A stretch of DNA of 64,000 nucleotides, taken from assembly GCA_964651705.1 (NCBI GenBank), contig CAZYWZ010000014.1:9743-73742 (forward strand), in the 5' to 3' direction. Both the position numbers and the translations under genes were made by a program. Positions 3,519 to 56,591 of this stretch are shown piece after piece. Position 1 is the stretch's first letter. The number at the start of each line of letters is the position of its first letter. The DNA is from an uncultured Verrucomicrobiales bacterium. GTDB lineage: Bacteria > Verrucomicrobiota > Verrucomicrobiia > JADLBR01. The notes under the pieces were generated by a model. The model was given only the letters and a program-made list of their open reading frames with translations, was not told where the DNA came from and ran no database searches.

Positions 3519-3682
3519 GAATCCCATCGGGAGGCGCCGCGGGCGGCCGCGGGCCTTTTGCCACGCCTTCCACGCCTGGACCTTTCCGCGGCCGGCGAGC
3601 CCGCGGCTGTAGGCCATCCACTAGTCGGTCTGCCCGCAGGCGAGCAGGTAGGCCTTCAGGCGTTTCCGGTGGCGCGCGGGCT

Positions 3683-3744
3683 GCCGCGTGAACGCGGCAC
3701 TACGAGCGGGGAAAGGTTTGTAGTGACGCCTTCAGGCGTTCCGG
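3683..3744 (+). repeat. REP element, family R1, left copy (two hairpins GCCGCGtgaaCGCGGC and ACGCCttcaGGCGT)
   Basis: 62-nt sequence repeated at 4421-4482 with ~90% identity in the same orientation. The two copies flank the RAYT gene. Confidence 0.8.
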
Positions 3745-3793
3745 CGGCAGGGTTTCGGCTGTTTTCTTGTTGGCGATATGGCAGGGTTGAGGC

Positions 3794-4414
3794 GTGCGGG
3801 ATAGGGGATATCGGTGGCGAGGCATGTCCTCCGGAGAACGGGCGGAAGTGGTAGCGTTGCGAAAGGCTCGCCGGTGGCCATGGCATGCGCCCCCACACGG
3901 GAGCTTCAAGAACGGGGGGCACTTTCATTTAACGGCGGCCTGTTTCGAGCACCGGGCGCACATCGGGCACTCCATCGAACGAATGGAGGATTTTGCGGGC
4001 GGGCTGTTGCGTGCCGTGGCCGAAGGCGGAGGGCAGGCGTTGGCCTGGTGCGTGCTGCCGAACCATTATCACGCGCTGGTCGATGCCGGTGTGCTGCGGC
4101 ATCTGCTTGACGCGCTGGGCCGATTGCATGGTCGCAGCGCTTGCGCCTGGAATCGGGAGGAGGGAATGCCGGGCCGCAAGGTTTTCTTCCGCGTGGCGGA
4201 TCGGGCGATGCGCTCGGAGCGGCACTTTCTGGCGACGCTGAACTACGTGCACCACAACCCGGTCCGCCACGGCTATGTCGCGCGCTGGACGGATTGGCCG
4301 TGGTCGAGCGCATCGGAGTATTTTTCGCGCGTGGGGTGGTCGGAGGCTGAGCGTCGTTGGCGGGAGTATCCCATCGGCGATTATGGCAGGGGCTGGGACG
4401 ACGCCGACCTGTGA
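3794..4414 (+). CDS. REP-associated tyrosine transposase (RAYT, IS200/IS605-like Y1 HUH enzyme)
   Basis: HuH motif LPNHYHALV, C-terminal catalytic-Tyr region LNYVHHNPVRHGYV, and an N-terminal WPWH..GG.FHLT block typical of RAYTs. Flanked by REP R1 copies. Confidence 0.8.
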   Translation: MRDRGYRWRGMSSGERAEVVALRKARRWPWHAPPHGSFKNGGHFHLTAACFEHRAHIGHSIERMEDFAGGLLRAVAEGGGQALAWCVLPNHYHALVDAGVLRHLLDALGRLHGRSACAWNREEGMPGRKVFFRVADRAMRSERHFLATLNYVHHNPVRHGYVARWTDWPWSSASEYFSRVGWSEAERRWREYPIGDYGRGWDDADL

Positions 4415-4420
4415 GGGCAT

Positions 4421-4482
4421 GCCGCGTGAACGCGGCACTACGAGCGGGGGAAGGTTCGTCGCGACACCTTCAGGCGTTCTGG
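4421..4482 (+). repeat. REP element, family R1, right copy
   Basis: Direct repeat of 3683-3744 starting 7 nt after the RAYT stop. Confidence 0.8.
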
Positions 4483-4501
4483 GCGAAGGCGCTGCGCGAG
4501 G

Positions 4502-28421: not shown

Positions 28422-29816
28422 TCAGTTTCCATGTTCGGTTATCCGGTCGTTTCGAAACGTCCACGCCAGCGCCGCGAGGATGGCGAGCGCCCCGATGAGG
28501 TAGGCGGCGGACAGGCCGGCAAAACCCAGGGACAGGCCGCGGACCTGCCCGAGCGATTGGGCGCCCAGGCCGATGAGCCATGGGGAGAGCGACCCGGCGA
28601 GGAACGCGACCATCACCATGACGGAGACAGCAGACGCGCGGAAGCGGGGTTCGATGACATCGAACAGCGAGGCGTGGGTGTTGCTCTCATAGAGGCCGCG
28701 GAACAGGCCGAAGGCCGACATCGCGAGCAGGGTGGCGCCGAGGTCGGATGCGAGGCCCATCACGGCGATGGCGGGTGCGCCCAGCGCCATCGAGATGGCC
28801 TGCATCCTGAGACGTGACGCGGGCCAGCGCGCCGCCCACCGGTCGGAGAGATGGCCGCCGACGATGACGCCCACGAGCGCCAGCAGGTGGTGGAAAAACA
28901 TCGCATAACCGCCCGACACCGTGAGCGAGAGCGAGAATTTCTCTTTGAGGAACACCGGGGCCCAGACGACGTAGGCGTTGTTGACGGTGACGATGGCGGT
29001 GAAGCCGATGGTCAGGAGGATTGCGGTGGGCACCCGGAACAGTTTTCCCAGCGCCTCGAATGGGTGCAGCCAGCGCGTGCCGGCGGCGGCAGGCATTCCT
29101 GCCTGCGCCGGCGGCCCTGAGCCGACCTTGGCAGACAGGAATGTCTGCCTCACGGGCGCCCCGTTGTCCCGAGAACGCGGCGCGTCTTTGAGTCGGAACA
29201 CAAAGACGGCGCCGAGGAAGATGCCGCAGCCCCCGAAGGCGTAGAACGCCGAGCGCCAGCCCCAGCGCTCGGCGATCCAGCCGCCCAGGAAGCCGCTGGC
29301 CATCACGCCGACGTAGAGGGCCGCCTGATGGATCGACATGGCGAGGGCGCGGGTCTCCCGATGGTAGGTCCCCAGCAGGGAATAGGCCGCCGGGGCGTAG
29401 AAGGACTCCCCGCCCGCGGTCGCGACGCTGCGCAGCAGGATGAGGCTCACGATCCCGCCCGCAAATCCCGTGAATAGCGTCGCCGAACTCCAGAAGATGA
29501 GGGCGCCGGTGATGAGCCACTTGCGGCTCAGGATGTCGCCGAGGTACCCGGCGAAAGGCATCAGCACCGCAAGGGTCGCGAACAGGACCGTTCCCACGAG
29601 CCCCACCTGGGGATCGCTCAGCCCGAGATCGGCGCGGATGTCGGCGAGCACGACCCCGAAGATCGCGCGGTCGCCCTGGTGGAAAAAGAAGGCGAGGCAG
29701 AGGAGCGCGAGGAGCTCCCATTTGTAGCGCTGGGCTGGGGGAGAGTGATTCAAGGAAGATGGACAGATTGTAGGCCGGCTGTGCCGGCCGGCAATCTTGA
29801 GTGCGGCGGCTGACAC
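28422..29816 (-). CDS. MFS transporter (sugar acid / oligosaccharide type)
   Basis: 12 predicted TM segments. MFS motifs GDRAIFG and LGDILSRKW (D-R/K-x-G-R-[KR]-like). Confidence 0.8.
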   Translation of the reverse strand: MSAAALKIAGRHSRPTICPSSLNHSPPAQRYKWELLALLCLAFFFHQGDRAIFGVVLADIRADLGLSDPQVGLVGTVLFATLAVLMPFAGYLGDILSRKWLITGALIFWSSATLFTGFAGGIVSLILLRSVATAGGESFYAPAAYSLLGTYHRETRALAMSIHQAALYVGVMASGFLGGWIAERWGWRSAFYAFGGCGIFLGAVFVFRLKDAPRSRDNGAPVRQTFLSAKVGSGPPAQAGMPAAAGTRWLHPFEALGKLFRVPTAILLTIGFTAIVTVNNAYVVWAPVFLKEKFSLSLTVSGGYAMFFHHLLALVGVIVGGHLSDRWAARWPASRLRMQAISMALGAPAIAVMGLASDLGATLLAMSAFGLFRGLYESNTHASLFDVIEPRFRASAVSVMVMVAFLAGSLSPWLIGLGAQSLGQVRGLSLGFAGLSAAYLIGALAILAALAWTFRNDRITEHGN

Positions 29817-29822
29817 AGCCGC
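29804..29822 (-). terminator. hairpin GGCGGCTGtgtcAGCCGCC downstream of the SDR gene (no U-tract)
   Basis: 7-bp perfect stem between the SDR stop and the MFS start. GC-rich organisms often lack a poly-U tail. Confidence 0.25.
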
Positions 29823-29851
29823 CCTACAAACATAGCATGCGCTTTCATCGC

Positions 29852-30628: not shown

Positions 30629-30695
30629 GCTGAATCGAAACTTCTGGGTGTAGCCACGGTCGTGAGACCGTGGACGTGCTGGCCGAGCGCCCGGA

Positions 30696-30720
30696 CCCAT
30701 CTGTTACCAGATGGGCTACA
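30696..30720. repeat. hairpin motif CCCATCTGttacCAGATGGGCTACA, family R5, copy 1
   Basis: 8-bp perfect stem and 4-nt loop. Also at 36800-36824 and 38528-38551 in the same orientation, each upstream of a minus-strand gene start. Confidence 0.7.
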
Positions 30721-30737
30721 TTCTTGATCGCCTAGAA

Positions 30738-31919
30738 TCATGCTTTCGTTCCTCCGGTTCCAAAATACGACGTCGCATCGGGTGGGCGGATCTGCGTGAG
30801 CGCGCCGGTGTAGTGGCGGAGGTCGCGCGGCACGTAGGGATGTTTCGCGATCTCGCCCTCCCGGATGTCGATGCCGAGGCCCGGGGCATCCGGGATGAGC
30901 ATGTGGCCGTTCTCGAGGCGCGCGGCCTCGGTGCTGACCTCGCGGCGGTGCGCCACGTCGGAGGACATCGTTTCCAGAAGGAAGAAATTGGGCGTGCAGG
31001 CGGCGAGTTGCAGGGTCGCGGCGTTGGCGACGGGTCCGGAGGGGTTGTGGGGGCAGACGGGGATGTGGTGGGCCTCGGCCATCGCGGCGATCTTCCGGAC
31101 CTCGCCGATGCCGCCGGCGTGGCTCACGTCCGGTTGGATGTAATCGGCGCACCCGAGCCGGAGGTAATTGCGGTAGTCCCAGCGGCTGTAGAGGCGCTCG
31201 CCCCCGGCGATCGGCACCTTCACCCGGCGTTTGATCTCGGCCAGCGCCTCCGGGTTATCGGGGGGGATCGGTTCCTCGAACCAGGTGATATCGAAGTCCT
31301 CCAGCGCGTGGGCGATGCGGACTGCGGTCGGCACGTTGAAGCGGCCGTGGCCCTCGATGAGGATGTCCACCTCGGGACCCGCGGCCGAGGCCACGGCGGC
31401 GATGCATTCCAGCGCCCCGCGCAACTCGCGCTTTCCGATGTCCCTGTACGCGCTGCCGAAGGGATCCCACTTCAGCCCGCGGAAGCCTTGCGCCACGGCG
31501 GCCCTGGCTTTCTCCGCGAACTCGTCCGGCGTCACGGCCGGCGCAAACCATCCGTTGGCATAGCAGGGCACGCGGTCGCGCACCCGGCCCCCGAGCAACT
31601 GCCACACCGGAACCCCGAGCGCCTTGCCCTTGATGTCCCAGAGGGCCATCTCGACCCCGGCCAGCGCGCTCATCAGGACGGGGCCGCCCCGCCAGTACGC
31701 ATCGCGATACGCGTCGTGCCAGAAGGCCTCGATGTCGTGCGGATCGCGGCCCACGAGATAGCGTCCCAATTCGCGGCAGGCTTGCGCCACGGTCTGCTCG
31801 CGCATCTCCAGCGTGGCTTCGCCAACGCCGTGAAGGCCGCCGTCGGTGTCGACCCTGACGAAGACCCAGTTCGTCCGGTACGCGTGGCAGAGGAAGGTCT
31901 GGATGCCGGTGACTTTCAT
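30738..31919 (-). CDS. enolase-superfamily D-galactonate / D-mannonate dehydratase family (DgoD/ManD)
   Basis: AYWRGGPVLMSALAGVEMALWDIKGKALGVPVWQLLGG matches the DgoD/ManD capping-domain block. LSHAGGI barrel motif. 393 aa. Confidence 0.8.
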   Translation of the reverse strand: MKVTGIQTFLCHAYRTNWVFVRVDTDGGLHGVGEATLEMREQTVAQACRELGRYLVGRDPHDIEAFWHDAYRDAYWRGGPVLMSALAGVEMALWDIKGKALGVPVWQLLGGRVRDRVPCYANGWFAPAVTPDEFAEKARAAVAQGFRGLKWDPFGSAYRDIGKRELRGALECIAAVASAAGPEVDILIEGHGRFNVPTAVRIAHALEDFDITWFEEPIPPDNPEALAEIKRRVKVPIAGGERLYSRWDYRNYLRLGCADYIQPDVSHAGGIGEVRKIAAMAEAHHIPVCPHNPSGPVANAATLQLAACTPNFFLLETMSSDVAHRREVSTEAARLENGHMLIPDAPGLGIDIREGEIAKHPYVPRDLRHYTGALTQIRPPDATSYFGTGGTKA

Positions 31920-31931
31920 GGGAGATTATTG

Positions 31932-32002
31932 AACCACGGATGGACACGGATGGGCGCGGATGGCGCGGCGGAATTGGTGTCCATCGGAGTCCATTCGTGG
32001 TT
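31932..32002. promoter_or_regulatory. candidate operator: three CGGATGG direct repeats at 10-bp spacing plus inverted copies (dyad AACCACGGATGGAC / GTCCATTCGTGGTT)
   Basis: Lies 15-85 nt upstream of the dgoD/manD start, the first gene of the 27-kb operon. The 10-bp periodicity puts repeats on one helix face. Confidence 0.35.
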
Positions 32003-32092
32003 GAGGGTGGGCCCGTGCCACCCGGAGGCCAACTGGCAAATTGCGTCAGTGATTTGCGAAACTGCGACATCCCGCGCCGCGGGGCCGGCGCC

Positions 32093-32150
32093 CGTAACGC
32101 GGACACTCCTGTCCGCGATCCATGGGCGGACAGGAGTGTCCGCCCTACGG
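32093..32150 (+). repeat. REP doublet, family R2 (GCGGACActccTGTCCGC / GCGGACAggagTGTCCGC), left
   Basis: Two 7-bp-stem hairpins in inverted orientation. Repeated at 32945-33039 (three hairpin units). The two sites flank RAYT 2. Confidence 0.8.
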
Positions 32151-32255
32151 CATTTGGGCTTGCCGGGTCGGGAGGGATTCGCGATAGGGTTCTCTCCGGG
32201 TATGGAGAAGGGTCGGGGAAATTCGTATCCTTTTGAATTCAAGGCTCGGGATGGG

Positions 32256-32918
32256 ATGGGGTGCGGCCCGCGCCCCCGGATCCCATTCATCGGCCTGAAC
32301 CAAGATGGGCAAATCCGCATCACATGTCGGCGATTGCCGCATTGGACTCAGGCGGGCGTGTCGTACTTTGTGACGTATCGTCTAGCCGATTCCGTACCAT
32401 TGAAACTATTGCGCCGATGGCGTGAAGAGAGGGATATTTGGTTGCGCTGGCACCCTGAGCCTTGGACCAGAAAGGTGCAGGAGGATTATGAAGAGCGATT
32501 CACCGAACGCATGGAGCGATGGGTGGATGCGGGAGTGGGCGCGTGTCAACTGCGCCGTCCCGAGATTCGAGCGATAGCCGAAAGGCACCTATTGCACGGC
32601 GATGGATCGAGGCACGATGTGGATTCGTATGTGATCATGCCAAACCACGTGCATGCGATCCTGACCCCGAGGGCGGGCAACGACCTGTTCGGGCTCCTCC
32701 AGGGCATCAAGGGCGTGAGCGCGCGCAACATCAACCGGCTCCTTGGCCGTATCGGCGCGAGGCTCTGGATGGAGGACGCGTATAACAGGATCGTGCGTGA
32801 CGCGAGAGAACTATGGGCGTTCCGCCAATACATCGCACTGAACCCGGTTAAGGCCCGGCTGCGTCCGAATGAATATACCCTGGTGTTCGCGGACGTGCTG
32901 GAGGCCAGCGGACCGTAG
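32256..32918 (+). CDS. REP-associated tyrosine transposase (RAYT) of a second, different group
   Basis: N-terminal RITCRRLPHWTQAGVSYFVTYRL, HuH motif IMPNHVHAIL, catalytic Tyr region AFRQYIALNPVKA. 220 aa. Only the C-terminal part of ORF-track 30711-32918 is taken; the rest is antisense to dgoD. Confidence 0.8.
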   Translation: MGCGPRPRIPFIGLNQDGQIRITCRRLPHWTQAGVSYFVTYRLADSVPLKLLRRWREERDIWLRWHPEPWTRKVQEDYEERFTERMERWVDAGVGACQLRRPEIRAIAERHLLHGDGSRHDVDSYVIMPNHVHAILTPRAGNDLFGLLQGIKGVSARNINRLLGRIGARLWMEDAYNRIVRDARELWAFRQYIALNPVKARLRPNEYTLVFADVLEASGP

Positions 32919-32944
32919 CGGTGACTCTTTTGTGGGACGGGGGC

Positions 32945-33039
32945 GTAACGCGGACACTCCTGTCCGCGATCCATGGGCGGACAGGAGTGTCCGCCCTACG
33001 GCGTTCGGGTTGGGGCGGACAGGAGTGTCCGCCCTACGA
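32945..33039 (+). repeat. REP triplet, family R2, right
   Basis: Starts ~27 nt after the RAYT 2 stop. Near-identical to 32093-32150 plus one extra hairpin unit. Confidence 0.8.
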
Positions 33040-33071
33040 TATGGCTATTGCGGGCGCGTTTGGCGGTTGGC

Positions 33072-34262
33072 ATGATGTGTGCGATGGCTTCGAAAATGCG
33101 TCGGGGTCGAGGGTCCTCGGGTGGCGCGGCGGTGGGCCGGAGGCCCTCGGTGGCGGTGTGCATCGACACGCGGGACGGGCCGGGGCGCGAGCGGTTGCTG
33201 GGGGTGTACCGTTTTGCGGTGGAGCGGGGCTGGCGGCTGTACCTGTTGCGTGGGGAGGACCGGGCGGTGTTGGCGCGGTTGCGGCGGCTGCGGCTGGACG
33301 GGGCGATCGTGTACGACAAGCCTGCTTCGATCCACCGGGTGCTGGTGGCGCGGGGCGTGCCGTGCGTGGAGACGGGGGCGAGGAATCTGGGGATCGATGA
33401 CGCGGCGGTCTTCGTGGATGACGACGCGTTGGCCAAGCTGGCGGTGGGGCACCTTTCGGGGCTGGGGCTGGCTGGGCTGGCGTATTGCGGGCTGGGGCGC
33501 CGTTGGCCGTCGGCGCGGCGCGCGGAGCATTTCTGCAAACACGCCGGGGGCGCCGGCTATCTGGCGAGCGTTTTTGAGGAGTCGGTGCCGGAGGGCGAGG
33601 CGGATCTGGATCGGCTGACGCAGTGGCTGCGCAAGTTGCCGAAGCCCGTGGGGGTGCTCGCCTACGACGACAAGATGGCGGAGCGGGTGCTGGCGGCCTG
33701 CGCTTGGGGCGGCATTGCGGTGCCGGGGGAGGTGGCGGTGGTGGGCATCGGCAATGACGAGCTGATGTGCCAGTTGGCGCACCCGTCGCTATCGAGCGTG
33801 GCATTGCCGACGGCGGAGATCGGGCGCCGGGCCGCCGAGCTGCTGGATCGTCGGCTGCGGGGAAGGGGCCGTTGGCGGATGAGGGAGGCGCTGGCGCCGC
33901 GCGAGGTGATCGCGCGGGCATCGACGGACCGTTTCCCCACGGTGGACCCGGTGGTCTGCGCGGCCATCGAGGTTATCGTGGGGCGGGACTCTGGTCCCCT
34001 GGGAACCGATCAGGTGGCCGGGGCGATCGGCGTGTCGCGGCGGACGCTGGAGCGCCGCTTCCGCGAGGTCATGCGGCAGACGGTGCATGACTTTCTGGTG
34101 GGGCGGCGCATGCGCCGCGCGGCCGAACTGCTGCGGCTGCACCCGAGCCCGCTTTCGGATATCGCGTCCCGGTGTGGCTATGGGGCGCTGTCGGCATTCA
34201 TCCGCGCGTTCCGGGCGGCCATGGGCTGCCATCCGCGGGCCTATCGGGAGCGGTACCGGTGA
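33072..34262 (+). CDS. XylR-type AraC-family transcriptional regulator (periplasmic-binding-protein-like sensor domain plus AraC HTH)
   Basis: C-terminal RRTLERRFREVMRQTVHDFL...IASRCGYGALSAFIRAFRAAMGCHPRAYR is an AraC/XylS HTH. N-terminal domain VGVLAYDDKMAERVLAACAWGGIAVPGEVAVVGIGNDEL is LacI/PBP-like. Start after the REP. Confidence 0.75.
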   Translation: MMCAMASKMRRGRGSSGGAAVGRRPSVAVCIDTRDGPGRERLLGVYRFAVERGWRLYLLRGEDRAVLARLRRLRLDGAIVYDKPASIHRVLVARGVPCVETGARNLGIDDAAVFVDDDALAKLAVGHLSGLGLAGLAYCGLGRRWPSARRAEHFCKHAGGAGYLASVFEESVPEGEADLDRLTQWLRKLPKPVGVLAYDDKMAERVLAACAWGGIAVPGEVAVVGIGNDELMCQLAHPSLSSVALPTAEIGRRAAELLDRRLRGRGRWRMREALAPREVIARASTDRFPTVDPVVCAAIEVIVGRDSGPLGTDQVAGAIGVSRRTLERRFREVMRQTVHDFLVGRRMRRAAELLRLHPSPLSDIASRCGYGALSAFIRAFRAAMGCHPRAYRERYR

Positions 34263-36779: not shown

Positions 36780-36799
36780 CGGATTCTCTCGCGGCGGGG

Positions 36800-36824
36800 C
36801 CCATCTGTTACCAGATGGGCTACA
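36800..36824. repeat. hairpin motif CCCATCTGttacCAGATGGGCTACA, family R5, copy 2 (glcD-glcF intercistronic)
   Basis: Identical to copy 1. 21 nt upstream of the glcF start. Confidence 0.7.
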
Positions 36825-36854
36825 TCGGGATCTTTCGCATCGGCGCGCATGGTG

Positions 36855-38219: not shown

Positions 38220-38331
38220 GGTGAACCTTTCTTGTGAAGGGGCTCATTTATGCGTGAGGTCGATCAAAAAGGCAAGTGCGGGTGTGGCGCCTGTGGCGGG
38301 GCGTACACGGTCTGGCGATCGCGGTTGCGAA

Positions 38332-38494
38332 TTTTCGAGCTAGATCCCGTGTCCCGCCCGCGGGGCACCACCGGGGGTGAAAATGTAGGGCGCGAAATCC
38401 CTTTCGCGCCACGGGCAACCGGCAGGGCCCTCGTGGCGCGGATGGGAATCCGCGCCCTACAGGCCGATCCCGTGGCCGATTTTCGAGTCAGGTC
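38332..38494. repeat. composite REP/MITE-like element: 50-nt conserved head, GTAGGGCGCGAAATCCCTTTCGCGCCAC palindrome doublet (family R3), GATTTTCGAGTC tail
   Basis: Same three-part architecture at 53125-53268. Doublet units at 38385-38412 and 38433-38460 are mutual reverse complements. Followed by further hairpins CCCGCCCgatGGGCGGG and R5 copy 3 (38528-38551). Confidence 0.7.
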
Positions 38495-38604
38495 ACATCC
38501 CGCCCGATGGGCGGGACCATCGGGGAACCCATCTGTGACCAGATGGGCTACGTTTTTGGATTCTCGAATCGGCGGGGAGGGTGGCGGGTATTCCCTGGCG
38601 GGGA

Positions 38605-39621
38605 TCAATCCACCTGTTTGAACTGGCCGCCCTTGGACTGTTTGGCGAGGTCGCGGAGGGAGGAGCCAGCCTGGGGTGCGCCGAGGGCGATGGTGTTGAC
38701 CTTGATGTTCTTGGCCTTCTCGGCGAGGAGTTTAACGCCCTTTTCGGCCTCGGCCTTGCCCTCGGCGCCGTCGGTCATGAAGAAGATGACGTCGGGCGGG
38801 GGTTTCATGGCGAGCGCGACGCCGAGCGCGGGGACCCAATCGGTGCCCCAGACAAGTTCCTGTTTTTCGATCTCGCGGAGGCTGCGTCGCTTGTTGTTTT
38901 CGGTGGCCGCGATCCACTTGGCCTTGGGCACGTCATCGGGGTCCTTGGTGTGCCAGTTGTTGTTGTCCTTGTGGGCCCACCGTTTCTCTTTGACGTCCTC
39001 GCCGGCGAGCCAGACGGGTCCGGCGAAGAAGACGAGGGCGTAATTGGCCTCGGGGCTGAGGCCCTTGACGGCCCTGGAGAGTTCCTCGCGCATGAGGGCC
39101 TCGCGGGTCTTGCCGCCCTTGGCCTTGCCCTTCATGGATTCGGAGAGGTCGACGACGAAGGCGATGTACTGGCCGGTGGCCTTGAGGCCGAAGAACTCGA
39201 CGCCCATCATGCCCGCGGCGGAATTGCCGCGGCCTCCCATCATGGAGGTCACGTCAGAGACCTGATCGGAGACGAGGCTTGTGGGGTCGAACTCGAGCAT
39301 GTCGACGGGGACCTTTGGGATGTCGGGCAGCGCGAACTTGGCCTCGCGGACCGAGGCGATTTTCTGGTCGATGACGGGGCGGGGGGCGGCGGCCTCGAGT
39401 TCCTGTATGGTGACCTTCGGGTCGATGATCTTCGGGGGGATCTTGACGGGGCGGGAGACGAAGGTGGCCTCCGGCGGCGGGAAGAAGCGGGCGATGATCC
39501 AGTATAGCGCGCCGACGCCGATGATCGCGTGGACGACGATGCTGAGCGTGATGGCGGCGGCGACGATCTTGCGCCGTTTGCCCTTCGCTGTGTCTTTCAG
39601 CTCTTCGACGTTGACGGACAT
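38605..39621 (-). CDS. TonB-like membrane anchor (TM with S-x3-H, Pro-rich spacer) fused to a C-terminal von Willebrand factor A domain
   Basis: N-terminal KRRKIVAAAITLSIVVHAIIGVGALYWII (TonB-type S-x3-H signal-anchor), then PPPEATFVSRPVKIPPKIIDPKV proline-rich segment, then vWA-like IAFVVDLSESM...VIFFMTDGAEG (MIDAS-like D-x-S-x-S...T...D). Last gene of the exbB-exbD-exbD operon. Confidence 0.65.
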   Translation of the reverse strand: MSVNVEELKDTAKGKRRKIVAAAITLSIVVHAIIGVGALYWIIARFFPPPEATFVSRPVKIPPKIIDPKVTIQELEAAAPRPVIDQKIASVREAKFALPDIPKVPVDMLEFDPTSLVSDQVSDVTSMMGGRGNSAAGMMGVEFFGLKATGQYIAFVVDLSESMKGKAKGGKTREALMREELSRAVKGLSPEANYALVFFAGPVWLAGEDVKEKRWAHKDNNNWHTKDPDDVPKAKWIAATENNKRRSLREIEKQELVWGTDWVPALGVALAMKPPPDVIFFMTDGAEGKAEAEKGVKLLAEKAKNIKVNTIALGAPQAGSSLRDLAKQSKGGQFKQVD

Positions 39622-39653
39622 CGCGGAAACAACTCCCTTTCCCGCGCGCGGCG

Positions 39654-40103
39654 CTAGAAGGTTTCCTCCTCGAGGGCCCCGCCGAAGGTGACGCCTTGGA
39701 TGCCGGCGGCGGCGCAGGTGTTCATGACATCGATGACGCGCTGGTGGGGGACGGTGTCGTCGCCGTAGATGGTGACCAGCGCGTCGACCTTGTTGGCCTC
39801 GGCGGTCTTTCGGAAGCGCTCGAGGATGCCGCGGAGCTTGGGCAGTTCGGTGTTGTCCGGCGAGTCGACGGCGAGCTCGTTAAGGAAGACCTGGCCGTTC
39901 TCCCGGATGGTGATCCGCTGCTCGTCGGGAATGGTGAGGGCGCTCTCCTGGGAGACGGTGCCTGGGAGGGTGATGCCGACGTCGCTTTCCGGTTTGATGG
40001 GCTTGGCGGTGACCATGAAGAAGACGAGGAGCAGGAAGACCATGTCGATGAGGGGGCCCATCTGCATCTCGATGGTCTGCATGTCTCGGCGGCGGATCTT
40101 CAT
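39654..40103 (-). CDS. exbD: biopolymer transport protein ExbD/TolR (copy 2)
   Basis: MKIRRRDMQTIEMQMGPLIDMVFLLLVFFMV matches the ExbD/TolR N-terminal TM signature. 149 aa. Confidence 0.8.
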   Translation of the reverse strand: MKIRRRDMQTIEMQMGPLIDMVFLLLVFFMVTAKPIKPESDVGITLPGTVSQESALTIPDEQRITIRENGQVFLNELAVDSPDNTELPKLRGILERFRKTAEANKVDALVTIYGDDTVPHQRVIDVMNTCAAAGIQGVTFGGALEEETF

Positions 40104-40107
40104 GGCG

Positions 40108-40521
40108 TCACCGGCTGCTCCTGTAGGTGCCGAAGATGACCTCGATGGCGCCGGCCTCGGCGCAGGTCTGCATGATGCGGCGGATCTCCTTGAGGTGGGT
40201 GGTCTTGTCGGCGCGGACGTAGATGCGGAGGCCCGGCTGATCCTTGATGCGCCGCAGCAGGTGGGCCTTGAGGCCCGGGATGTCGGTGGGCCGCTCGCCA
40301 ATGAAGAGAGCGCCCTCGCTGTCGATGTTGATGATCTCCCGGCCCTTCCAATCGTCTGGGGTCTTGGCGGCCGAGGCGATGGGCAGTTTGACGTCGAGCT
40401 TGAGTTTCTCCTTGGTGATCTTCGTGGTGAGCATGAAGAAGATCAGGAGGAGGAAGACCATGTCGATCATGGGCGTCAGGGGGAACGCCACGTCGTCGGG
40501 CTCTCGTCGCTTGGCTCGCAC
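40108..40521 (-). CDS. exbD: biopolymer transport protein ExbD/TolR (copy 1)
   Basis: MRAKRREPDDVAFPLTPMIDMVFLLLIFFMLT. 137 aa. Confidence 0.8.
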   Translation of the reverse strand: MRAKRREPDDVAFPLTPMIDMVFLLLIFFMLTTKITKEKLKLDVKLPIASAAKTPDDWKGREIINIDSEGALFIGERPTDIPGLKAHLLRRIKDQPGLRIYVRADKTTHLKEIRRIMQTCAEAGAIEVIFGTYRSSR

Positions 40522-40561
40522 TTTGTTTGGGTTCTGGGTTCGCGGTTCTCTGTTCTGGGCT

Positions 40562-41377
40562 TCAGGGCGAGGGTGGCGCCTGCGGTGTTTCGGGTGGGGA
40601 GGCCGCGGACTTCTCGGCGGTGGCGAGTGAGACCTCGCCGGTGAAGAGGTCGAAACAGAGGCTGACGGCCTTCTCGATGTCGGTGAGGGCGCCCTGGAGG
40701 ATGTTGCGGAAGAAGAAGAAGCAGAACATGGCGGGGATGCCGACGATGAGGCCTCCGGCGGTGGTGATCATGGCCTCGCCGATGCCGCCCGCGAGGTCGG
40801 CGGGCTCGCTGCGGCCGGCGGCGAGTTCGCTGAAGGACTCGATCATGCCGAAGACGGTGCCGAGCAGTCCGAGCATGGGGGCGATGGTGGCGAAGAGGTT
40901 GAGGTAGTTGATCCAGAGCATGTAGCGGGTTTCCTCGTGGGCGATGGTCTCGGAGGCCGTCTCCTCCATGGCCTTCTTGTTGTAGAGGTCGCGGTTGAAA
41001 TCCACCTTCACCAGCGCGGCGAGGATCGTGGTGGTGAATGGGCTGGGGTTGGCGCGGCAGAACTGGAACGCGCCATCGACGTCGCGCTCGGACAACAGCT
41101 TGTTGGTTTGCGCGACGACCTCGGCGGGGAGCATCTTGCGACGGTTGATCTGGATGATGCAGTAGGCGGCGACGGCGATGGTGCCCAGGGATGCGGCGGC
41201 GATGAAGTGCATGAGGGGCCCGCCTATGAGGTAGAGGTCCCAGAGGGTTTGCTCGGTGGGGGCGGGGGGCGCCTTCGCGGCCGGCTCGGCCTGAGGTGCC
41301 GGTTGGGCGAGGGCGGCGGCCGCGGCGACCGCGAGGAGGCAGGCCATCACGGCGTGGCTGGGTGCTTTGATCTTCAT
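40562..41377 (-). CDS. exbB: MotA/TolQ/ExbB proton-channel protein with cleavable signal peptide and N-terminal periplasmic extension
   Basis: Signal MKIKAPSHAVMACLLAVAAAAALA. C-terminal TM bundle with LGLLGTVFGMIESF and GEAMITTAGGLIVGIPAMF motifs. Confidence 0.8.
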   Translation of the reverse strand: MKIKAPSHAVMACLLAVAAAAALAQPAPQAEPAAKAPPAPTEQTLWDLYLIGGPLMHFIAAASLGTIAVAAYCIIQINRRKMLPAEVVAQTNKLLSERDVDGAFQFCRANPSPFTTTILAALVKVDFNRDLYNKKAMEETASETIAHEETRYMLWINYLNLFATIAPMLGLLGTVFGMIESFSELAAGRSEPADLAGGIGEAMITTAGGLIVGIPAMFCFFFFRNILQGALTDIEKAVSLCFDLFTGEVSLATAEKSAASPPETPQAPPSP

Positions 41378-41427
41378 ATGCGCTGATTTCCTATTCTGGG
41401 TTCCGGGATGAGATTGGGGGTTCTGCT

Positions 41428-42360
41428 CTAGCGGTCCAGTTTGTTCAAGAGTTCCCTGGCGCGCTCGAGCCATTCGGGGTCGGGAAAATAGTCGATGATC
41501 TCGCGGAGCCGGGTCCGGGCGTCATCCTTCTTGTCGAGGTGCCGATAGATCTCGGCGGCGCGGTAGAGTCCGCGCGCGGTGGCGGAGGTGAACTCGGGGT
41601 GCATGGCTGCCGGGAGGAGGAAACCGTTGAGGGCCGCGTCGATGTGGTCCTGGCGCTCAGCCATCTGCTTTGGCATCTGTTCCCACTTGGGCCACTCGGT
41701 CTCCATCTGGCGGACGGAGGCCCATGCGATCTCGGCCCGGGCCAGGGTGGCCTCGAGCATTGCCTCGACGTGGGGGCCGGTTGTGGCGGCGCCGGGGTCG
41801 TCGATTTCCTTGGCCAGGGCCTGCGCTTTCTCGAGTTGGCCGATTTGGGCGTAGATCGTGAGGCGCTGCAGCCTGGCCCCAGTCTTCCGTGCCGGGTCCC
41901 ACGCCTTGGCCTCGATTTGCTGGAGGATGTCGAGGGCCGGTTTGGCGGCGGCCTCGTCGCGGGGCGTGGCGTGGATTCGGGCGAGTGCGGCGCCGGCGTC
42001 GGCGGCGGGGGACTCGGGGAGGGCGAGGTAGGGGCGGAGTTCCTTCCAGAGCGATTCGAGGCGGGCGCGCCGGTTGTCAGAGGGCGAGGCGATGGCCGAC
42101 CTCTCTTGCTCGTCCATCGCGAACTCGACTTTCTCGACGCGTTCCATGGGGTAGGGCACCCGGGCGGTGCCCGCGCCGATGGTGGAATTGAGCGTGATGC
42201 TCTGGCCGTCGTAGGCGACGATCTCCCCCTCTTGGGTGGAGCCGTCCTTGAGGTAGGCGGTGACCTGGCGGGCGGCGGGGAGGGGCGCGGCCCCGAGGCA
42301 CAGCGAGAACAAGAGGATGCCGTTGGGAATGCGGGCGCGGGCTGGGTGGCGGCGGTTCAT
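41428..42360 (-). CDS. secreted protein with N-terminal beta-rich domain and C-terminal TPR-like helical repeats
   Basis: Signal-like N-terminus ILLFSLCLGAAPLPA. 4-nt overlap with the upstream TPR gene (42357-42360). Helical repeats with A/L/E-rich periodicity. Confidence 0.55.
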   Translation of the reverse strand: MNRRHPARARIPNGILLFSLCLGAAPLPAARQVTAYLKDGSTQEGEIVAYDGQSITLNSTIGAGTARVPYPMERVEKVEFAMDEQERSAIASPSDNRRARLESLWKELRPYLALPESPAADAGAALARIHATPRDEAAAKPALDILQQIEAKAWDPARKTGARLQRLTIYAQIGQLEKAQALAKEIDDPGAATTGPHVEAMLEATLARAEIAWASVRQMETEWPKWEQMPKQMAERQDHIDAALNGFLLPAAMHPEFTSATARGLYRAAEIYRHLDKKDDARTRLREIIDYFPDPEWLERARELLNKLDR

Positions 42361-45209
42361 GTCGTGGGTGCGGCGGCCGGTGCGGGACCGAGCTCGCGGA
42401 GGCGTTTGGTCGCCTTCTTGTGGGCATCGAATTCCTTGAGCGTCTCGTTGTCGATCATTTCCTGATAGGTGTTGCGCGCCTCGGTCTGCATGCCGAGTTT
42501 CTCGAAGGCCTGGCCGCTCTCCCAGTAGGCATCGGCGACGAGATCGGTCCAGCGCCCATGCATGACATAGAGCCGCTGGAAGTAGGCGATGGCCTTCCTG
42601 GGGTCATTGCGCCTCATCTGGAGGCGGCCCAGCTCCAGCAGAGCCTCGGCGATGGGCCTGCCACGGAGGCCCTGTATCTCCAAGATGCGGTTCAGTTCGC
42701 CCGCGGCGCGCTCAAATTCTTGCCCGTCCGCGTAGATGGCGGCGCGGGTGCGGAGGACCTCGACGAGCAGGGGCGTGGAAGTGGAGACCGCCTCGAACTC
42801 CTCGAACTGTTTGAGCGCCTCATTGTTCTTGTTCTCGGCCCGTGCGATCAGGCCCAGGCCGAGATAGGCGCGGTCGCGGAACATGGAGCGCGGGTGCCAG
42901 GTGAGGATGGTCTTGTACAATTCTCGGGCCTTTCGCTTGCGGCCGGCGCGGCGCTCGGAATCGGCGATCTCGATCAGGACGAGGGCTGGCAGGGCCTTTG
43001 GGTCGACGTCGTTGGCGACGCGGGCCAGCTCGGCGTCTGCGGCCTTCGGGTTCTGCGGGCGGAGGAGGGCCGAGCGGAGCCAGAGGCAGCGCGCGAAGAG
43101 GGTGTGTTTCCCTTGCTTTTCGGCCCCTGCGGCCATCTCGCGCAATTTTCCAAAGAGGGCCTCGCGCTGCTCGGGGCCGGCGTAGTACTTCCCGAGCGTC
43201 AGGAGCATGGACTCGATGGCCTCGGCCTCGGGGTTGTTGCCGTGGCGGGCGATGGCGTCCCAATAGAGTTCCCGGGCGTTTTCGGACTCGCCGCGGATCC
43301 GCTTGAGGTTGGCCAGGTTCTGGATCGCCTCGGGGGCGCGGCCGCTGTCGGGGAATTCGTCGATGAACTTCTGGAGGTGGGTTTCAAGTTCGGGGGTTCG
43401 CTCGAGGGTCTGGAGCGCCTTGGCGATGCGGAAGACGGCGTGCTCGTAGAGGCGGGGGATGCGGGTGGTGACCTTGCGGAAGACCTCGAGACCCTGCGGC
43501 ACCTCGCCGATGGCGTAGAGCGAATCGCCGAGTGCGTTGCGCGCCTCGTCGGCCACCTGGGATTCGGGGTTCGCGTCGAGAAATTCTTTCAGCTCGGGGA
43601 CGGCCTCGGCGAATCGTTCCGAATTGAACAGGCAGTGCGCCTTGCGATACGCCGCATCGACGGCGAACTCGCCGTTGGGGTGTTTGGCGAGGTAGGCGAT
43701 GAAGCCCTCGCGGGCCTCGGGGTACGCCTTCTTATAATAGTGGCCCATCGCGCGCCAATACCGGGCCTGCTCGGCATATTCGCCCCCGGGGTTGGCCTCG
43801 AGGTATTTGCCGAGCATGCGGATGGCGTCATCCTGCTGGTCGGCCATCATGTAGGCATAGCCGGATAGGAACAGGCAACGCGCCGCCTGCGCGAAGTCCG
43901 TGAATTCCGTGCCGGTGCGCTCGAAGGTGGCGCCCGCACCCTTGAATCGCATGAGGCGCATCTCGGCCTCGCCGCGGAGGTAGAGCGCGGAGGGGAGCAA
44001 CCCGCGGGCGTCGGGGAACTTCTTCTCGAAGGCCTTGGCCTCTTCGATGAGCCTCGGCCAAGATTCCATGTCCGCGAGGCAGGCGAGCATCATGTAGTGG
44101 GATTGCTTGAGCAACTCGCTCTCGGGCATCTTGGCGACCAGGTCGCCTAGCGCGAGATAGGCCTCCCGGCTCCGGTCGAGGGCGTCGAAGCACTGGGCGA
44201 TCCGTGCCCCCCGTGCGGTGTCATAGTCGGGGATCTTCTTCAATTGCTCGATCTCGGCCTTGATGCGCGCGGCGAGGGCGTCGAGGGACATCAGGTCGTA
44301 CGGGTCGGCGTCTCCGCGGGCCTTGAGGCGCGCGATGCGGTAGTCGAGTTGCGCGAGTCGTTCCTGTTGGCGGGCGAGGATGCGTTCCAGGGTCCAGACG
44401 CGCTGAAAGACCTGAAGCGCCTTGCGGGGCTGCTCTTTCTTAAACAGCTCGTTGCCAAGCTGGATCGAGAGCAAGTGGAACCCGGCGAGGGTCAGGTTGT
44501 CTCTGGATTCGGAGTCGAAGGCCATGACCATCGCCGTGGCGCCATCGAGGTCCTCGGCCTTCAGCAGGGCGTGGAGGCGGAGCGCGGTGGCCTGGGAGTT
44601 GATGGCGGGATCCAGCTTGCCCACCATGGGTTCCAAAAAATTGGCCAGCTCCTTGAACTTCTCATCGATTTCCAGCGAAAGTGCGATCACGAGCCGGGCG
44701 TAATCGAGGCGCGCCCCGGCGGGATATTTGGCGAGATAATCCTGCATGGCCTTGCGGGTGGCCTCCCCCTCTTTCTCCTGCAGGTGGCAGACGCCCTTCC
44801 AGAACAGCATCTCCTCGGCGGCGACGCCCTGGGAGTATTCCTTCAGGTAGCGATCAACCGGCCCGAGGGCTTCCTTCCATTTGCCCTGGTGGATGCGGCA
44901 GAGCGCCAGCATCCGCACGATCTCGTCGAGGCGCTCGACCTTCAGGCGCCCCGCCTTGATGTCCGCGAGCAGGCCCACGAGCTTCGTCTCCGCCGAGGCG
45001 TATTTCTTCCCGCGGAAGTCCATGATCGCGGCATTCAGGACCAGGGTCTTATCCTTCGGGGTCTGTTCTTCGACCATGGCGGGTTCCGGCTGCGGCGCAC
45101 CCTTGCCCTTCTTCTTCTTGCCCTTTTGCTGCGCGTGGGAGGAGAGTGGGCCGATGAAGAGGGCGCACAGAAGGAGCAGCGCGGTGCCGGTAGCTTGCCT
45201 TCGGCGCAT
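42357..45209 (-). CDS. large secreted tetratricopeptide-repeat (TPR) protein, CpoB/BatC-like scaffold
   Basis: About 950 aa. Signal MRRRQATGTALLLLCALFIGPLSSHA (start could also be 45227). Many W/Y-x-x-A-x-x-x-Y 34-residue repeats. Confidence 0.65.
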   Translation of the reverse strand: MRRRQATGTALLLLCALFIGPLSSHAQQKGKKKKGKGAPQPEPAMVEEQTPKDKTLVLNAAIMDFRGKKYASAETKLVGLLADIKAGRLKVERLDEIVRMLALCRIHQGKWKEALGPVDRYLKEYSQGVAAEEMLFWKGVCHLQEKEGEATRKAMQDYLAKYPAGARLDYARLVIALSLEIDEKFKELANFLEPMVGKLDPAINSQATALRLHALLKAEDLDGATAMVMAFDSESRDNLTLAGFHLLSIQLGNELFKKEQPRKALQVFQRVWTLERILARQQERLAQLDYRIARLKARGDADPYDLMSLDALAARIKAEIEQLKKIPDYDTARGARIAQCFDALDRSREAYLALGDLVAKMPESELLKQSHYMMLACLADMESWPRLIEEAKAFEKKFPDARGLLPSALYLRGEAEMRLMRFKGAGATFERTGTEFTDFAQAARCLFLSGYAYMMADQQDDAIRMLGKYLEANPGGEYAEQARYWRAMGHYYKKAYPEAREGFIAYLAKHPNGEFAVDAAYRKAHCLFNSERFAEAVPELKEFLDANPESQVADEARNALGDSLYAIGEVPQGLEVFRKVTTRIPRLYEHAVFRIAKALQTLERTPELETHLQKFIDEFPDSGRAPEAIQNLANLKRIRGESENARELYWDAIARHGNNPEAEAIESMLLTLGKYYAGPEQREALFGKLREMAAGAEKQGKHTLFARCLWLRSALLRPQNPKAADAELARVANDVDPKALPALVLIEIADSERRAGRKRKARELYKTILTWHPRSMFRDRAYLGLGLIARAENKNNEALKQFEEFEAVSTSTPLLVEVLRTRAAIYADGQEFERAAGELNRILEIQGLRGRPIAEALLELGRLQMRRNDPRKAIAYFQRLYVMHGRWTDLVADAYWESGQAFEKLGMQTEARNTYQEMIDNETLKEFDAHKKATKRLRELGPAPAAAPTT

Positions 45210-45459
45210 CCTGCTCCCTCGGATCATGATGCCAAAAGTTTCCAGATTGAACGTTGACGCACAAGGGGGAAAAGGGGTTTTGGGACGGTGGCCCTGAGCG
45301 ATCGGAGCGCGGGCGTTGGCCCAGGTGCGCGGGTCCCGGCTCCGCCGGGAGCCAAAGCGGTGTCGCCGCTGCGCTCTGCCACCGCAGTCCAAAAGTGGGT
45401 CGCCTCCCGCGCTGCCCTCGAGAGTGGGCGCGCAACCCCAACCAACATGAAGTTTCAGG

Positions 45460-46473
45460 TCAGAACTGCCGGAGGAAACGGAGGTCGTTCTGCTCGAAGA
45501 GGCGGATATCTGGGATGCCGTGGAGGATCATGACGATGCGTTCGACGCCGAGGCCGAAGGCGTAGCCGGTGAGGGCCTCGGGGTCGTAGCCGACGGCCTG
45601 GAAGACGGCGGGGTCGACCATGCCGCAGCCGGCGATCTCGAGCCAGTCTTTGCCCGCGCGGCCGAGGCTCTCGGAGGAGAGGTCGACCTCGAATGAGGGC
45701 TCGGTGAAGGGGAAGAAGTGGGGGCGGAAGCGCATGCGGGTGCCGGGGCCGAGGAGTTCGCGGAAGAAGAATTCCAAGGTGCCCTTGAGGTCGGCGAGGG
45801 AGACGCCGCGATCCACGCAGAGGCCCTCGATCTGGTGGAAGGAGGAGGAGTGGGTGGCGTCGATCTCGTCGCGGCGGTAGCAGCGGCCGGGGCAGATGAC
45901 GCGGACGGGCGGGGGCTGCGACCGCATGACGCGGATCTGGACCGGCGAGGTCTGGGTGCGCAGGAGGAAGCGCCCGTATTTCGGGTCCGCGGGGCGATCG
46001 AGGTAGAAGGTGTCCTGCTCGTTGCGGGCGGGGTGGTCGGGCGGGGTGTTGAGGGCGTCGAAGTTGTGCCATTCCGTTTCCACATCCGGCCCTTCGGCGA
46101 TGGCGAAGCCGAGGCGGCGGAAGATGGAGACGATGCGGTCGGTGACCTGCGTGATGAGGTGGAGGTGGCCGTCGGGCACCGGCCGGCCGGGGAGGGTCAC
46201 GTCGATGCCGGCCTCGTCGGTGGCGGCCTCGAGCCGTTCCTTGGCCGCGTCGAACAGCGACTGGATGCGGGTCTTGAATTCGTTGAGGCGCTGGCCGACC
46301 TCGCGCTTCTTCTCGTTGGGCACCTCCTTGAGGCGCTCCATGAGGGCGGGTATGGTCCCCTTGCGGGAGAGGAATTTCAGGCGGGCCTCCTCGAGGGCCT
46401 TGGCGTCGGCGACGGCATCGAGGGCCCGCGTCGCCTCGCGCTCCAATTCGGGGATCTGTTCGAGAATGTTCAC
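45460..46473 (-). CDS. pheS: phenylalanine--tRNA ligase alpha subunit
   Basis: Class II aaRS motifs FRPHFFPFTEPSFEVD and GCGMVDPAVF..GYAFGLGVERIVMILHGIPDIR. GTG start with a GGAG RBS 6 nt upstream. 337 aa. Confidence 0.9.
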   Translation of the reverse strand: MNILEQIPELEREATRALDAVADAKALEEARLKFLSRKGTIPALMERLKEVPNEKKREVGQRLNEFKTRIQSLFDAAKERLEAATDEAGIDVTLPGRPVPDGHLHLITQVTDRIVSIFRRLGFAIAEGPDVETEWHNFDALNTPPDHPARNEQDTFYLDRPADPKYGRFLLRTQTSPVQIRVMRSQPPPVRVICPGRCYRRDEIDATHSSSFHQIEGLCVDRGVSLADLKGTLEFFFRELLGPGTRMRFRPHFFPFTEPSFEVDLSSESLGRAGKDWLEIAGCGMVDPAVFQAVGYDPEALTGYAFGLGVERIVMILHGIPDIRLFEQNDLRFLRQF

Positions 46474-49768: not shown

Positions 49769-50001
49769 CCCGTGCCCCAAATCCTCGCGTAAGGATCGCT
49801 CCCCGAGTGACGTACCCTCAACGAACCGTATAGGACACAGGCACGTCACTTTGCCAAGTTTTGTAGGGCGCGGATTCCTATCCGCGCCACGCACGGTCCT
49901 GCCGGTTGCCCGTGGCGCGAAAGGGATTTCGCGCCCTACATTCCCAAGTGTTGCGCCTCCGGGTAGTGCCTTACGCGAGGATTTGGGTCCGTGCGCACGG
50001 G
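49769..50001. repeat. MITE-like palindromic element: ~26-nt terminal inverted repeats (CCCGTGCCCCAAATCCTCGCGTAAGG / CCTTACGCGAGGATTTGGG..CACGGG) enclosing an R3 palindrome doublet (49863-49939)
   Basis: The internal doublet is the reverse-complement arrangement of the 38385-38460 doublet. TIR arms match 23 of 26 positions with one 7-nt insertion. Confidence 0.6.
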
Positions 50002-53091: not shown

Positions 53092-53268
53092 GGGCCAAAC
53101 GCCTTGGGGCGTTCGGCTGCGGGAATCTTCGAGCTAGATCCCGTGCCCCGCGTGCGGGGCACCACCGGGGCGGAAAATGGTAGGCTGCGCCTTGGCGCAC
53201 GCTGCCGAATCGAATGTCCGCGTGCGCCAAGGCGCAGCCTACATCGCGACCCGATTTTCGAGTCGGGT
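53092..53268. repeat. composite REP/MITE-like element (R4 motif, R7 head TTCGAGCTAGATCCCGTGCCCCGCGTGCGGGGCACCACCGGGG, TAGGCTGCGCCTTGGCGCAC palindrome doublet, GATTTTCGAGTC tail)
   Basis: Same head and tail as 38332-38494. The core doublet is a sequence variant (53180-53200 and 53222-53242, mutual reverse complements). Confidence 0.65.
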
Positions 53269-56306: not shown

Positions 56307-56369
56307 TCGGGCCCGCGGGGTCGTCAGGGTGAGGATGACCGGCTCGCGTCGGGACTGAGTTTTGGGGCT

Positions 56370-56420
56370 GTAGGGCGCGAAATCCCTTTCGCGCCACAAG
56401 CAACCGGCAGGACCGCGCGC
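56370..56420. repeat. single R3 palindrome unit GTAGGGCGCGAAATCCCTTTCGCGCCAC plus spacer, followed by further hairpins (GGCGGTTTGcaaCCGCC, GGGGCGCTTccAAAGCGCCCC)
   Basis: Located between rmuC and the sulfatase. The hairpins may also serve as the rmuC terminator. Confidence 0.6.
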
Positions 56421-56591
56421 AGCGCTCTGGGAGCGGTCTGAAGCTGCGCGGGCATCGGGCCATCAAGGAGCGGCGGTTTGCAACCGCCGGGGGCGCTTCC
56501 AAAGCGCCCCTCCTTGTGAGTGGATCGGTGGCCCATTCGCGGGCCCCGAAGCGGCATTGACCCGCGCGACCGTTGCACCTTGAATTTCATC

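Follow-up and report, generated by a model that had tools for sequence, protein, structure and literature searches.

Several described systems couple the gene for a REP-associated tyrosine transposase (RAYT, or TnpA-REP) to repetitive extragenic palindromes (REPs) on its flanks, an arrangement called a REPtron. In E. coli, the enzyme (TnpA-REP, RAYT or YafM; PDB 4ER8) combines an HUH/Y1 fold with a YIxxNP tyrosine motif, the flanking REPs carry a 5' GTAG at the foot of the stem-loop, and Y and Z REPs are assembled into BIMEs. In Pseudomonas fluorescens SBW25 (Bertels and Rainey; PMC3116915, PMC5581495), inverted REP doublets that fold into a single hairpin, or REPINs, flank the RAYT. Genomes with more than one RAYT, each having its own REP family, are already documented (PMC6006769). 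In Opitutus terrae and other PVC bacteria, GTAG and GTGG stem-loop families coexist as monomers and as head-to-head or tail-to-tail dimers, together with repeat-specific REPtrons (PMC3733652). Here we analyse a stretch of 64,000 nucleotides (hereafter the window) of contig CAZYWZ010000014.1, from an uncultured Verrucomicrobiales bacterium, in which the region 32069-33039 is very probably a REPtron: an intact RAYT/TnpA-REP gene, which we call RAYT 2, accompanied by two identical REPINs in direct orientation and by one extra REP. Another transposase gene of this kind, RAYT 1, lies 28 kb away.

Repeats and transposase of the RAYT 2 locus

The hairpin GCGGACA-nnnn-TGTCCGC, searched for as GCGGACANNNNTGTCCGC over the whole window with at most one mismatch, occurs five times (32099-32116, 32126-32143, 32950-32967, 32977-32994 and 33015-33032), for 0.06 copies expected; five or more were found in none of 100 shuffled sequences, and a looser search for the core found no copy in the window beyond these five. 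All of them bracket a single open reading frame (ORF) on the plus strand, 32256..32918. An earlier note, made from the letters of this DNA, had described an inverted doublet to the left of the gene and a triplet to its right, and this is indeed what the five matches form. The left REPIN (32093..32150) is made of two inverted REP units separated by 9 nt (GATCCATGG). Unit 1 (32093..32116, plus strand), as read from the sequence and the pattern match, has a CGTAAC tag (GTAA-C) followed by the hairpin CGCGGACA-CTCC-TGTCCGCG, and unit 2 (32124..32150, minus strand), recovered in the tagged-hairpin scan ('-' 32148), reads GTAG-GGCGGACA-CTCC-TGTCCGCC. The right REPIN (32944..33001) is a direct repeat of the left one, identical at 58 of 58 positions, with a likeness that extends to 82 nt at 89%; such identity points to recent copying or homogenisation. 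A third, lone REP unit follows at 33013..33039 (minus strand), with the same sequence as unit 2. The arms of the REPINs are 25 nt long and 92% complementary. As single-stranded DNA, each doublet is predicted to form one long hairpin on either strand (-29 to -31 kcal/mol, z about -8; z = -8.0 at -29 kcal/mol), and the lone REP to fold by itself (-11.9 kcal/mol, z = -5.6). The doublets thus have the inverted REPs, the short spacer and the single long hairpin by which a REPIN is recognised.

Each unit also carries a conserved 5' tag, which had escaped the earlier note: three units, on the minus strand, have GTAG-G, and two, on the plus strand, read GTAA-C-GCGGACA-CTCC-TGTCCGC. The stems had been given as 7 bp long and are actually of 8-9 bp. 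With stems within the 6-9 bp range and GTAG or a degenerate form of it at one end, the repeats of RAYT 2 are classical REPs of the GTAG type as defined by Di Nocera et al. 2013 (PMC3733652), all from one hairpin family that is tagged GTAG or GTAA and has GGCGGACA as its stem and CTCC as its loop. Their association in doublets of two variants, with GTAA-C and GTAG-G arms, recalls the Y and Z REPs of the E. coli BIMEs, but their stems, unlike those of E. coli REPs, are short and perfect. A reading of the hairpins as intrinsic terminators was dropped because they have no T-run and no terminator-like site. The hairpin sequence was found in no searchable paper text.

The bracketed gene, present once in the window, encodes a protein of 220 amino acids that is an HUH/Y1 REP-associated tyrosine transposase of the RRLPHW type. 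The RRLPHW and IMPNHVHAIL motifs quoted in the earlier note are both there; the HUH motif is formed by H131-V-H133, and Y192, in YIALNP, is the candidate catalytic tyrosine. The protein passes the Pfam Y1_Tnp profile PF01797 marginally (25.6 bits for a cut-off of 23, E = 1.4e-5), and this domain is in the precomputed Pfam annotation of nearly all its homologues listed. Its sole NCBIfam match is REP_Tyr_transpos NF047646 (E = 5e-16, profile positions 46-136). The protein collection searched contains 1128 homologues, the top one 65% identical; most lie on 1-3-kb contigs, and the small number assigned to an organism are from Verrucomicrobiota metagenome-assembled genomes. Several homologues carry the source annotation "REP element-mobilizing transposase RayT". 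Across 30 aligned sequences, L27-P28-H29-W30, N130, H131, H133 and W171 are invariant or nearly so, and conservation reaches at least 90% for Y192, N196 and P197 (YIxxNP). RAYT 2 is full-length, and the family-invariant residues, including the HUH motif and the tyrosine, are all intact. TnpA-REP proteins are told apart from TnpA-IS200 by the YIxxNP motif, in which Asn replaces the IS200-type Gln (PMC6006769, Table 1 and Fig. 1 legend), and RAYT 2 has the TnpA-REP form. Within that classification, subclass 2.7 is nearest to it by description (median length 213, NHVH, YI..NP, GT[AG]G REPs), a likeness from which no assignment is made.

An AlphaFold model built from the 30-sequence alignment (pLDDT 89.8) has as its top Foldseek match in the PDB the E. 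coli RAYT with its REP hairpin (4er8_A, E = 3.9e-6, probability 1.00), followed by the ISDra2 and IS608 transposases; the top 30 PDB matches are all Y1 transposases. TM-scores to these matches are only 0.38-0.6, because RAYT 2 contains an insertion. Compared with the E. coli enzyme, to which its structural-alignment identity is about 14%, it has some 50-60 extra helical residues (about 45-100, chiefly H49-65 and H72-91), placed after the first core strand and ahead of the helix that precedes the HUH motif, and an extra N-terminal beta-hairpin bearing LPHW. Compared with the SBW25-type systems, it belongs to another clade, the RRLPHW type, and to another phylum. Y192 falls within a predicted helix (183-199), and a comparison of the family profile with ISDra2 TnpA (E = 3e-7) places the family tyrosine on Y132, the residue mutated in PDB 2XO6.

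By analogy with E. coli TnpA-REP and with the TnpA of the IS200/IS605 insertion sequences (IS608, ISDra2), RAYT 2 would bind the folded REP on transiently single-stranded DNA and read the tetranucleotide tag situated 5' of the stem. Cleavage would proceed via Tyr192, with a metal bound by His131 and His133, and be followed by strand rejoining; REP or REPIN units could thereby be copied or moved without target duplication. Activity of the enzyme, the places where it cuts and the dispersal of its repeats through the source genome are all inferred.

Conservation and spread of the hairpin

The layout of a gene flanked by REPs, which characterises a REPtron, is kept beyond RAYT 2 in nine homologue loci whose enzymes are 34-64% identical to it. 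These loci, which belong to Verrucomicrobiota or lie on contigs with an acidobacterial-type tag, have stems of 7-8 bp, loops of 4 nt and GTAA, GTAG, GTGG or GGAG tags. The closest ones carry GTAAC-GCGGGCA-ATCC (L243, 64%), doublets of GTAAG-N-CGGACA-CTCC (L244, 60%) and GTAAA-GCGGACA-CTCC (L041, 57%). At 53% identity, L246 has GTGG-GGCAGGCA-CTCC arranged as a left doublet and a right triplet, as in the window, and L247 (51%) pairs GTAAT-CGGGCCA-TTCC with GGGGGCA-GGAA-...-ATTAC. The most distant loci show GGAG-C-GCGGACA-CTCC (L014, 38%, and L086, 34%) or GTAG-G/A-GCGGACA-CTCC (L134 and L223, both 35%, the contigs with the acidobacterial-type tag). Hairpins are present on both sides of the gene in most of the nine loci; the L243 contig stops within the downstream hairpin, the upstream copy of L223 is degenerate, and L134 has a clean REPIN-gene-REPIN arrangement. 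Stem sequence does not simply track protein relatedness: the exact hairpin of the window recurs next to enzymes of 34-38% identity, and those of 51-64% identity are accompanied by altered stems. Neither GTAA nor GGAG is among the degenerate tags listed in PMC3733652.

The enzymes of L134 and L223 are 166 amino acids long, with RRMPHY at the N-terminus and no helical insertion of the kind found in RAYT 2. They are flanked by the very hairpin of RAYT 2, and the published acidobacterial TIRYT/TIRtron group (PMC3733652) is a possible counterpart. Their C-terminal CRADTPVRR is encoded by the REP itself. A comparable overlap is seen in three of the other loci, where the stop codon TAA of the RAYT falls inside the downstream GTAA tag (L243, 3075-3077; L247, 10637-10639; and L041, on the reverse strand).

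The hairpin is also found in the absence of a transposase gene. The exact 18-mer GCGGACAGGAGTGTCCGC is present in at least 120 GTDB reference-genome stretches (among the 80 listed, Acidobacteriota are the majority and Verrucomicrobiota account for about a dozen), and GTA-NN followed by the hairpin in at least 120 metagenome stretches. A RAYT-like gene is present in the stored DNA at only four genome and four metagenome loci among those listed, and of the public loci that have this hairpin in exact form, which number more than 230, about 97% have no nearby RAYT in stored DNA. Tags vary with lineage, being GTGTAG or GTGTGG in Acidobacteria and GGAGC, or GTAA/GTAG as in the window, in Verrucomicrobia. 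L045, L191 and L216 contain GTAAC doublets without a gene, and a relative about 86% identical (L255) has GTGG-GGCGGACA-TTGC-TGTCCGCC and another REP between two other genes, far from any RAYT. A contig that ends inside the REPIN (L002) had been taken as a further sign of dispersal, and was discarded because 31-mers become common to both flanking REPINs at 32122; two REPIN copies are enough to account for the end.

These observations bear on the proposal that the hairpins are locally duplicated host elements, regulatory or structural (mRNA stabilisers, attenuators or protein-binding sites), next to a transposase-like gene that is an inactive relic. A role in mRNA stability and in protein binding has been reported for REPs (PMC6006769, PMC3733652), the unit sits in a divergent control region, and the window has no copies elsewhere. 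Against this, the ORF is full-length and has all its family-invariant residues intact, HUH and Tyr included, and the association of gene and hairpin persists down to 34-35% identity, the contigs with the acidobacterial-type tag included. The recent copying or homogenisation suggested by the identical REPINs also argues against this proposal. No terminator-like or sigma-70-like site was found between 31850 and 33250, a negative that is uninformative since the promoter and terminator scan is uncalibrated for this phylum. On balance we regard host elements as a highly improbable explanation, and retain that of a REPtron.

Alleles at the site and possible movement of the unit

The RAYT 2 unit lies between two divergent genes. 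Upstream, on the minus strand, is a gene of the galactonate-dehydratase family (30738..31919; NCBIfam NF010624, 351 bits for a cut-off of 311). Downstream, on the plus strand, is a gene for a XylR-like regulator with a periplasmic-binding domain and an AraC helix-turn-helix (33087..34262). Its start is most probably ATG 33087, as MASKMRR is kept in the relatives L253 and L255 and the sequence upstream of it diverges; alternative starts are at 33075 and at GTG 33150, the latter being used by other gene callers. The earlier note had the right-hand REP abutting the start of the regulator. The last REP ends at 33039, 47 nt short of ATG 33087 and 35-110 nt short of the alternative starts, and there is therefore no direct abutment.

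We compared the site with that of relatives whose regulators are 76-97% identical (L254, L249-L251, L255 and L253). In all four orthologue contexts, with regulators at 97, 85, 78 and 76% identity, dehydratase and regulator genes are adjacent and divergent, separated by 197-445 nt, and no RAYT is present. In the closest of them, L254 (97% nucleotide identity), position 32068 of the window is joined straight to about 33037 and no REP is left. A segment of 969 nt is therefore missing there, which comprises 24 nt at the left end (ATCCCGCGCCGCGGGGCCGGCGCC, 32069..32092), the REPIN, RAYT 2, the second REPIN and the lone REP. Its right boundary is the outer end of the GTAG tag of this lone REP (CTAC|GA, at 33037/33038), a spot where the enzyme is predicted to cut. 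An intermediate state is found in L001 (Logan SRR17604964), which is 99.7% identical: the 24-nt segment and one REPIN are followed directly by the regulator leader, the contig aligning to 30647-32149 and 33013-33462 of the window, with RAYT 2 and the right REPIN gone. A reading of L001 as a contig that runs into RAYT 2 was abandoned, the alignment being that of a RAYT-less, solo-REPIN allele. The site is thus known in three states: with the full unit (window), with a solo REPIN (99.7% contig) and without the unit (97% contig and three more distant ones).

Recombination between two direct REP copies of 26 nt, at 32124-32149 and 33013-33038, best accounts for the solo-REPIN allele and would have deleted RAYT 2. 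Logan assemblies are built on 31-mers. As the 26-nt repeat is shorter than this, the junction of L001 is unlikely to be an assembly artefact. The allele is analogous to a solo long terminal repeat. In L249 (85%), the site contains the 13-nt sequence ATCCGCCGTACGA, and the junctions of the insert, once fused, look much like it (ATCC + GCCCTACGA). A deletion footprint is one possible origin of this sequence, a CGTACG-like target another. Loss of a REPtron through deletion is known in E. coli (PMC3733652), and movement of REPtrons as a unit is not known (PMC6006769). The series of full, solo and empty alleles is compatible with either gain or loss of the unit.

Another explanation is that the whole 969-nt unit is an autonomous insertion sequence (IS) of the IS200/IS605 type, with the hairpins as its ends, recently inserted between the dehydratase and regulator genes. 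The missing segment has a right boundary placed exactly at the tag, both genes are adjacent and free of REPs in L254 and three more distant relatives, the window has no gene-less copies, many homologues are on 1-3-kb contigs, and the fold, like the HUH/Tyr chemistry and the subterminal hairpin ends, is common to IS608 and ISDra2. In contrast, Asn stands in the tyrosine motif where IS200-type enzymes have Gln (PMC6006769), no TnpB is present, and the ends are symmetrical, identical REPINs, instead of the distinct left and right ends of such elements. Moreover, the public copies of the hairpin are mostly gene-less, the repeats persist without the gene in L001, and the homologues occupy differing genomic contexts as single genes. 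If the 13-nt sequence of L249 is a deletion footprint, loss and not gain explains the empty sites. We therefore consider an autonomous IS improbable, and a REPtron remains our preferred description of the unit.

Several points nevertheless weigh against this description. Classical REPtrons are not thought to move as a whole unit (PMC6006769), and the clean empty site of the 97%-identical relative could mean that this one did. Within the window, the REP families of RAYT 1 and RAYT 2 occur only beside their own gene, whereas other GTAG groups are dispersed; the family of RAYT 2 may accordingly be very low-copy in the source genome. REPtrons in genomes that lack the REP family have been described (PMC3733652). 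Likewise, in three long homologue loci (8.9-20.6 kb), cognate hairpins are almost exclusively located beside the gene. The exact 45-nt REPIN gave no match in JGI metagenome contigs, and nothing scored when its six-frame translations were compared with a set of 5.8 billion proteins. Finally, RAYT 2 scores 58.9 bits on the NF047646 equivalog, below the cut-off of 80, as does RAYT 1 (71.8 bits), so that both lie outside the canonical equivalog even though it is their only match.

A 42-nt block directly to the left of the insertion point, ccaactggcaaattgcgtcagtgatttgcgaaactgcgac (32027..32068; ccaactggcaaattgcg...tgcgac), is kept in all four relatives, by blastn and sequence comparison, amid intergenic DNA that has otherwise diverged; it may serve the divergent dehydratase and XylR genes as operator or promoter. 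In L254 it is located about 40-80 nt from the candidate starts of the regulator, and in the window the whole unit lies in between. If it holds the promoter or operator of the regulator, transcripts of the regulator would also cover RAYT 2 and carry the REPs in their leader. Since natural alleles with and without the unit share the same control region, an effect of the unit on regulator expression, as the earlier note had supposed, is plausible. Directly upstream of the start codon of the dehydratase gene (minus strand), an imperfect CGGATGG-rich inverted repeat (AACCACGGATGGAC...GTCCATTCGTGGTT) is present at 31925-32010; L254 and L249 have a related sequence in the corresponding position, and the window contains no second copy.

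REP content of the window and implications

RAYT 1 (3794..4414, plus strand; 206 amino acids, with PNHYH and YVHHNP) is flanked by repeats of its own, as the earlier note had it. The left one (3682..3751) holds GTAG-TGCCGCG-TTCA-CGCGGCA on the minus strand, and the right one (4420..4489) is 87% identical to it. By its NHYH, YVHHNP and WPWSS tail, RAYT 1 resembles subclass 2.1 of PMC6006769, by motif only; that subclass is listed there without REPs, and RAYT 1 is nevertheless flanked by GTAG-tagged hairpins. The claim of a second RAYT, provided with REP-type hairpins of its own, holds: the two proteins share about 30% identity across a 76-residue core and nothing else aligns, which is far from the near-identity that would have spoken against it, and the stems differ (TGCCGCG-TTCA versus GGCGGACA-CTCC). 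The two systems had also been called unrelated. They are separate, yet distant homologues, with GTAG tags on both repeat families. As for the idea that each RAYT has a cognate REP family, it is supported at the level of the family, in relatives and in other genomes; in the window, each family is seen only beside its own RAYT. The presence of several RAYTs, each with its own repeats, is a situation that the window shares with SBW25-type systems.

Perfect hairpins preceded by GTAG number 21 in the window, against the 1.9 ± 1.5 that first-order Markov simulations give. Of the 21, the clearly repeat-like ones, 17 in number, fall into six groups, and a repeat finder added a seventh, an imperfect GTAG doublet at 53180-53242. 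At least five of the GTAG-tagged groups are distinct from the RAYT families and have no adjoining transposase; besides the doublet just mentioned, such groups are located at 29770-29827, 30650-30721, 36796-36825, 38385-38553, 40053-40082, 49862-49947 and 56362-56425. Two groups, GTAG-CCCATCTG-GTAA-CAGATGGG (three perfect copies and one degenerate) and GTAG-GGCGCG(AAA/GAT)-TCCC (five tagged units, chiefly doublets), are spread over 30.7-56.4 kb, free of any transposase. With so many tagged hairpins, in several groups of which two are scattered, the segment is REP-rich, as is the verrucomicrobium Opitutus terrae (PMC3733652); with at least seven groups the window resembles that genome, a likeness of description and not of sequence. 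The doublets at 38385-38553 lie at a synteny breakpoint with L253: the window has about 7.2 kb of extra DNA (38277-45461), and L253 joins 38276 and 45462 within some 350 nt.

A broader reading can be put forward, in which RAYTs of the RRLPHW and RRMPHY types, together with the near-invariant hairpin GGCGGACA-CTCC-TGTCCGCC, form a super-family common to Verrucomicrobiota and Acidobacteriota that diversifies chiefly through its 5' tag (GTAG, GTAA, GTGG, GGAG), and in which the REPtron is still mobile as a unit. We find it rather doubtful as a whole. Mobility of the unit, if true, would contradict the notion of REPtrons as immobile, strictly vertical and lineage-specific systems.

The RAYT 2 unit is an ordinary but well-preserved REPtron, its gene encoding a transposase of domesticated type for single-stranded DNA, and the current picture of such systems is unchanged by it. 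It adds a clean verrucomicrobial case to a REP/RAYT catalogue that consists so far mostly of Proteobacteria. Two observations are worth keeping: the occurrence of one hairpin in two phyla, and the allelic series at the site. The full, solo-REPIN and empty alleles, which occupy the divergent control region between a sugar-acid operon and the gene of its XylR-like regulator, could help to position the cuts of the enzyme with respect to the GTAG tag, and could serve as a natural gauge of the effect of a REPtron on the expression of its neighbours.

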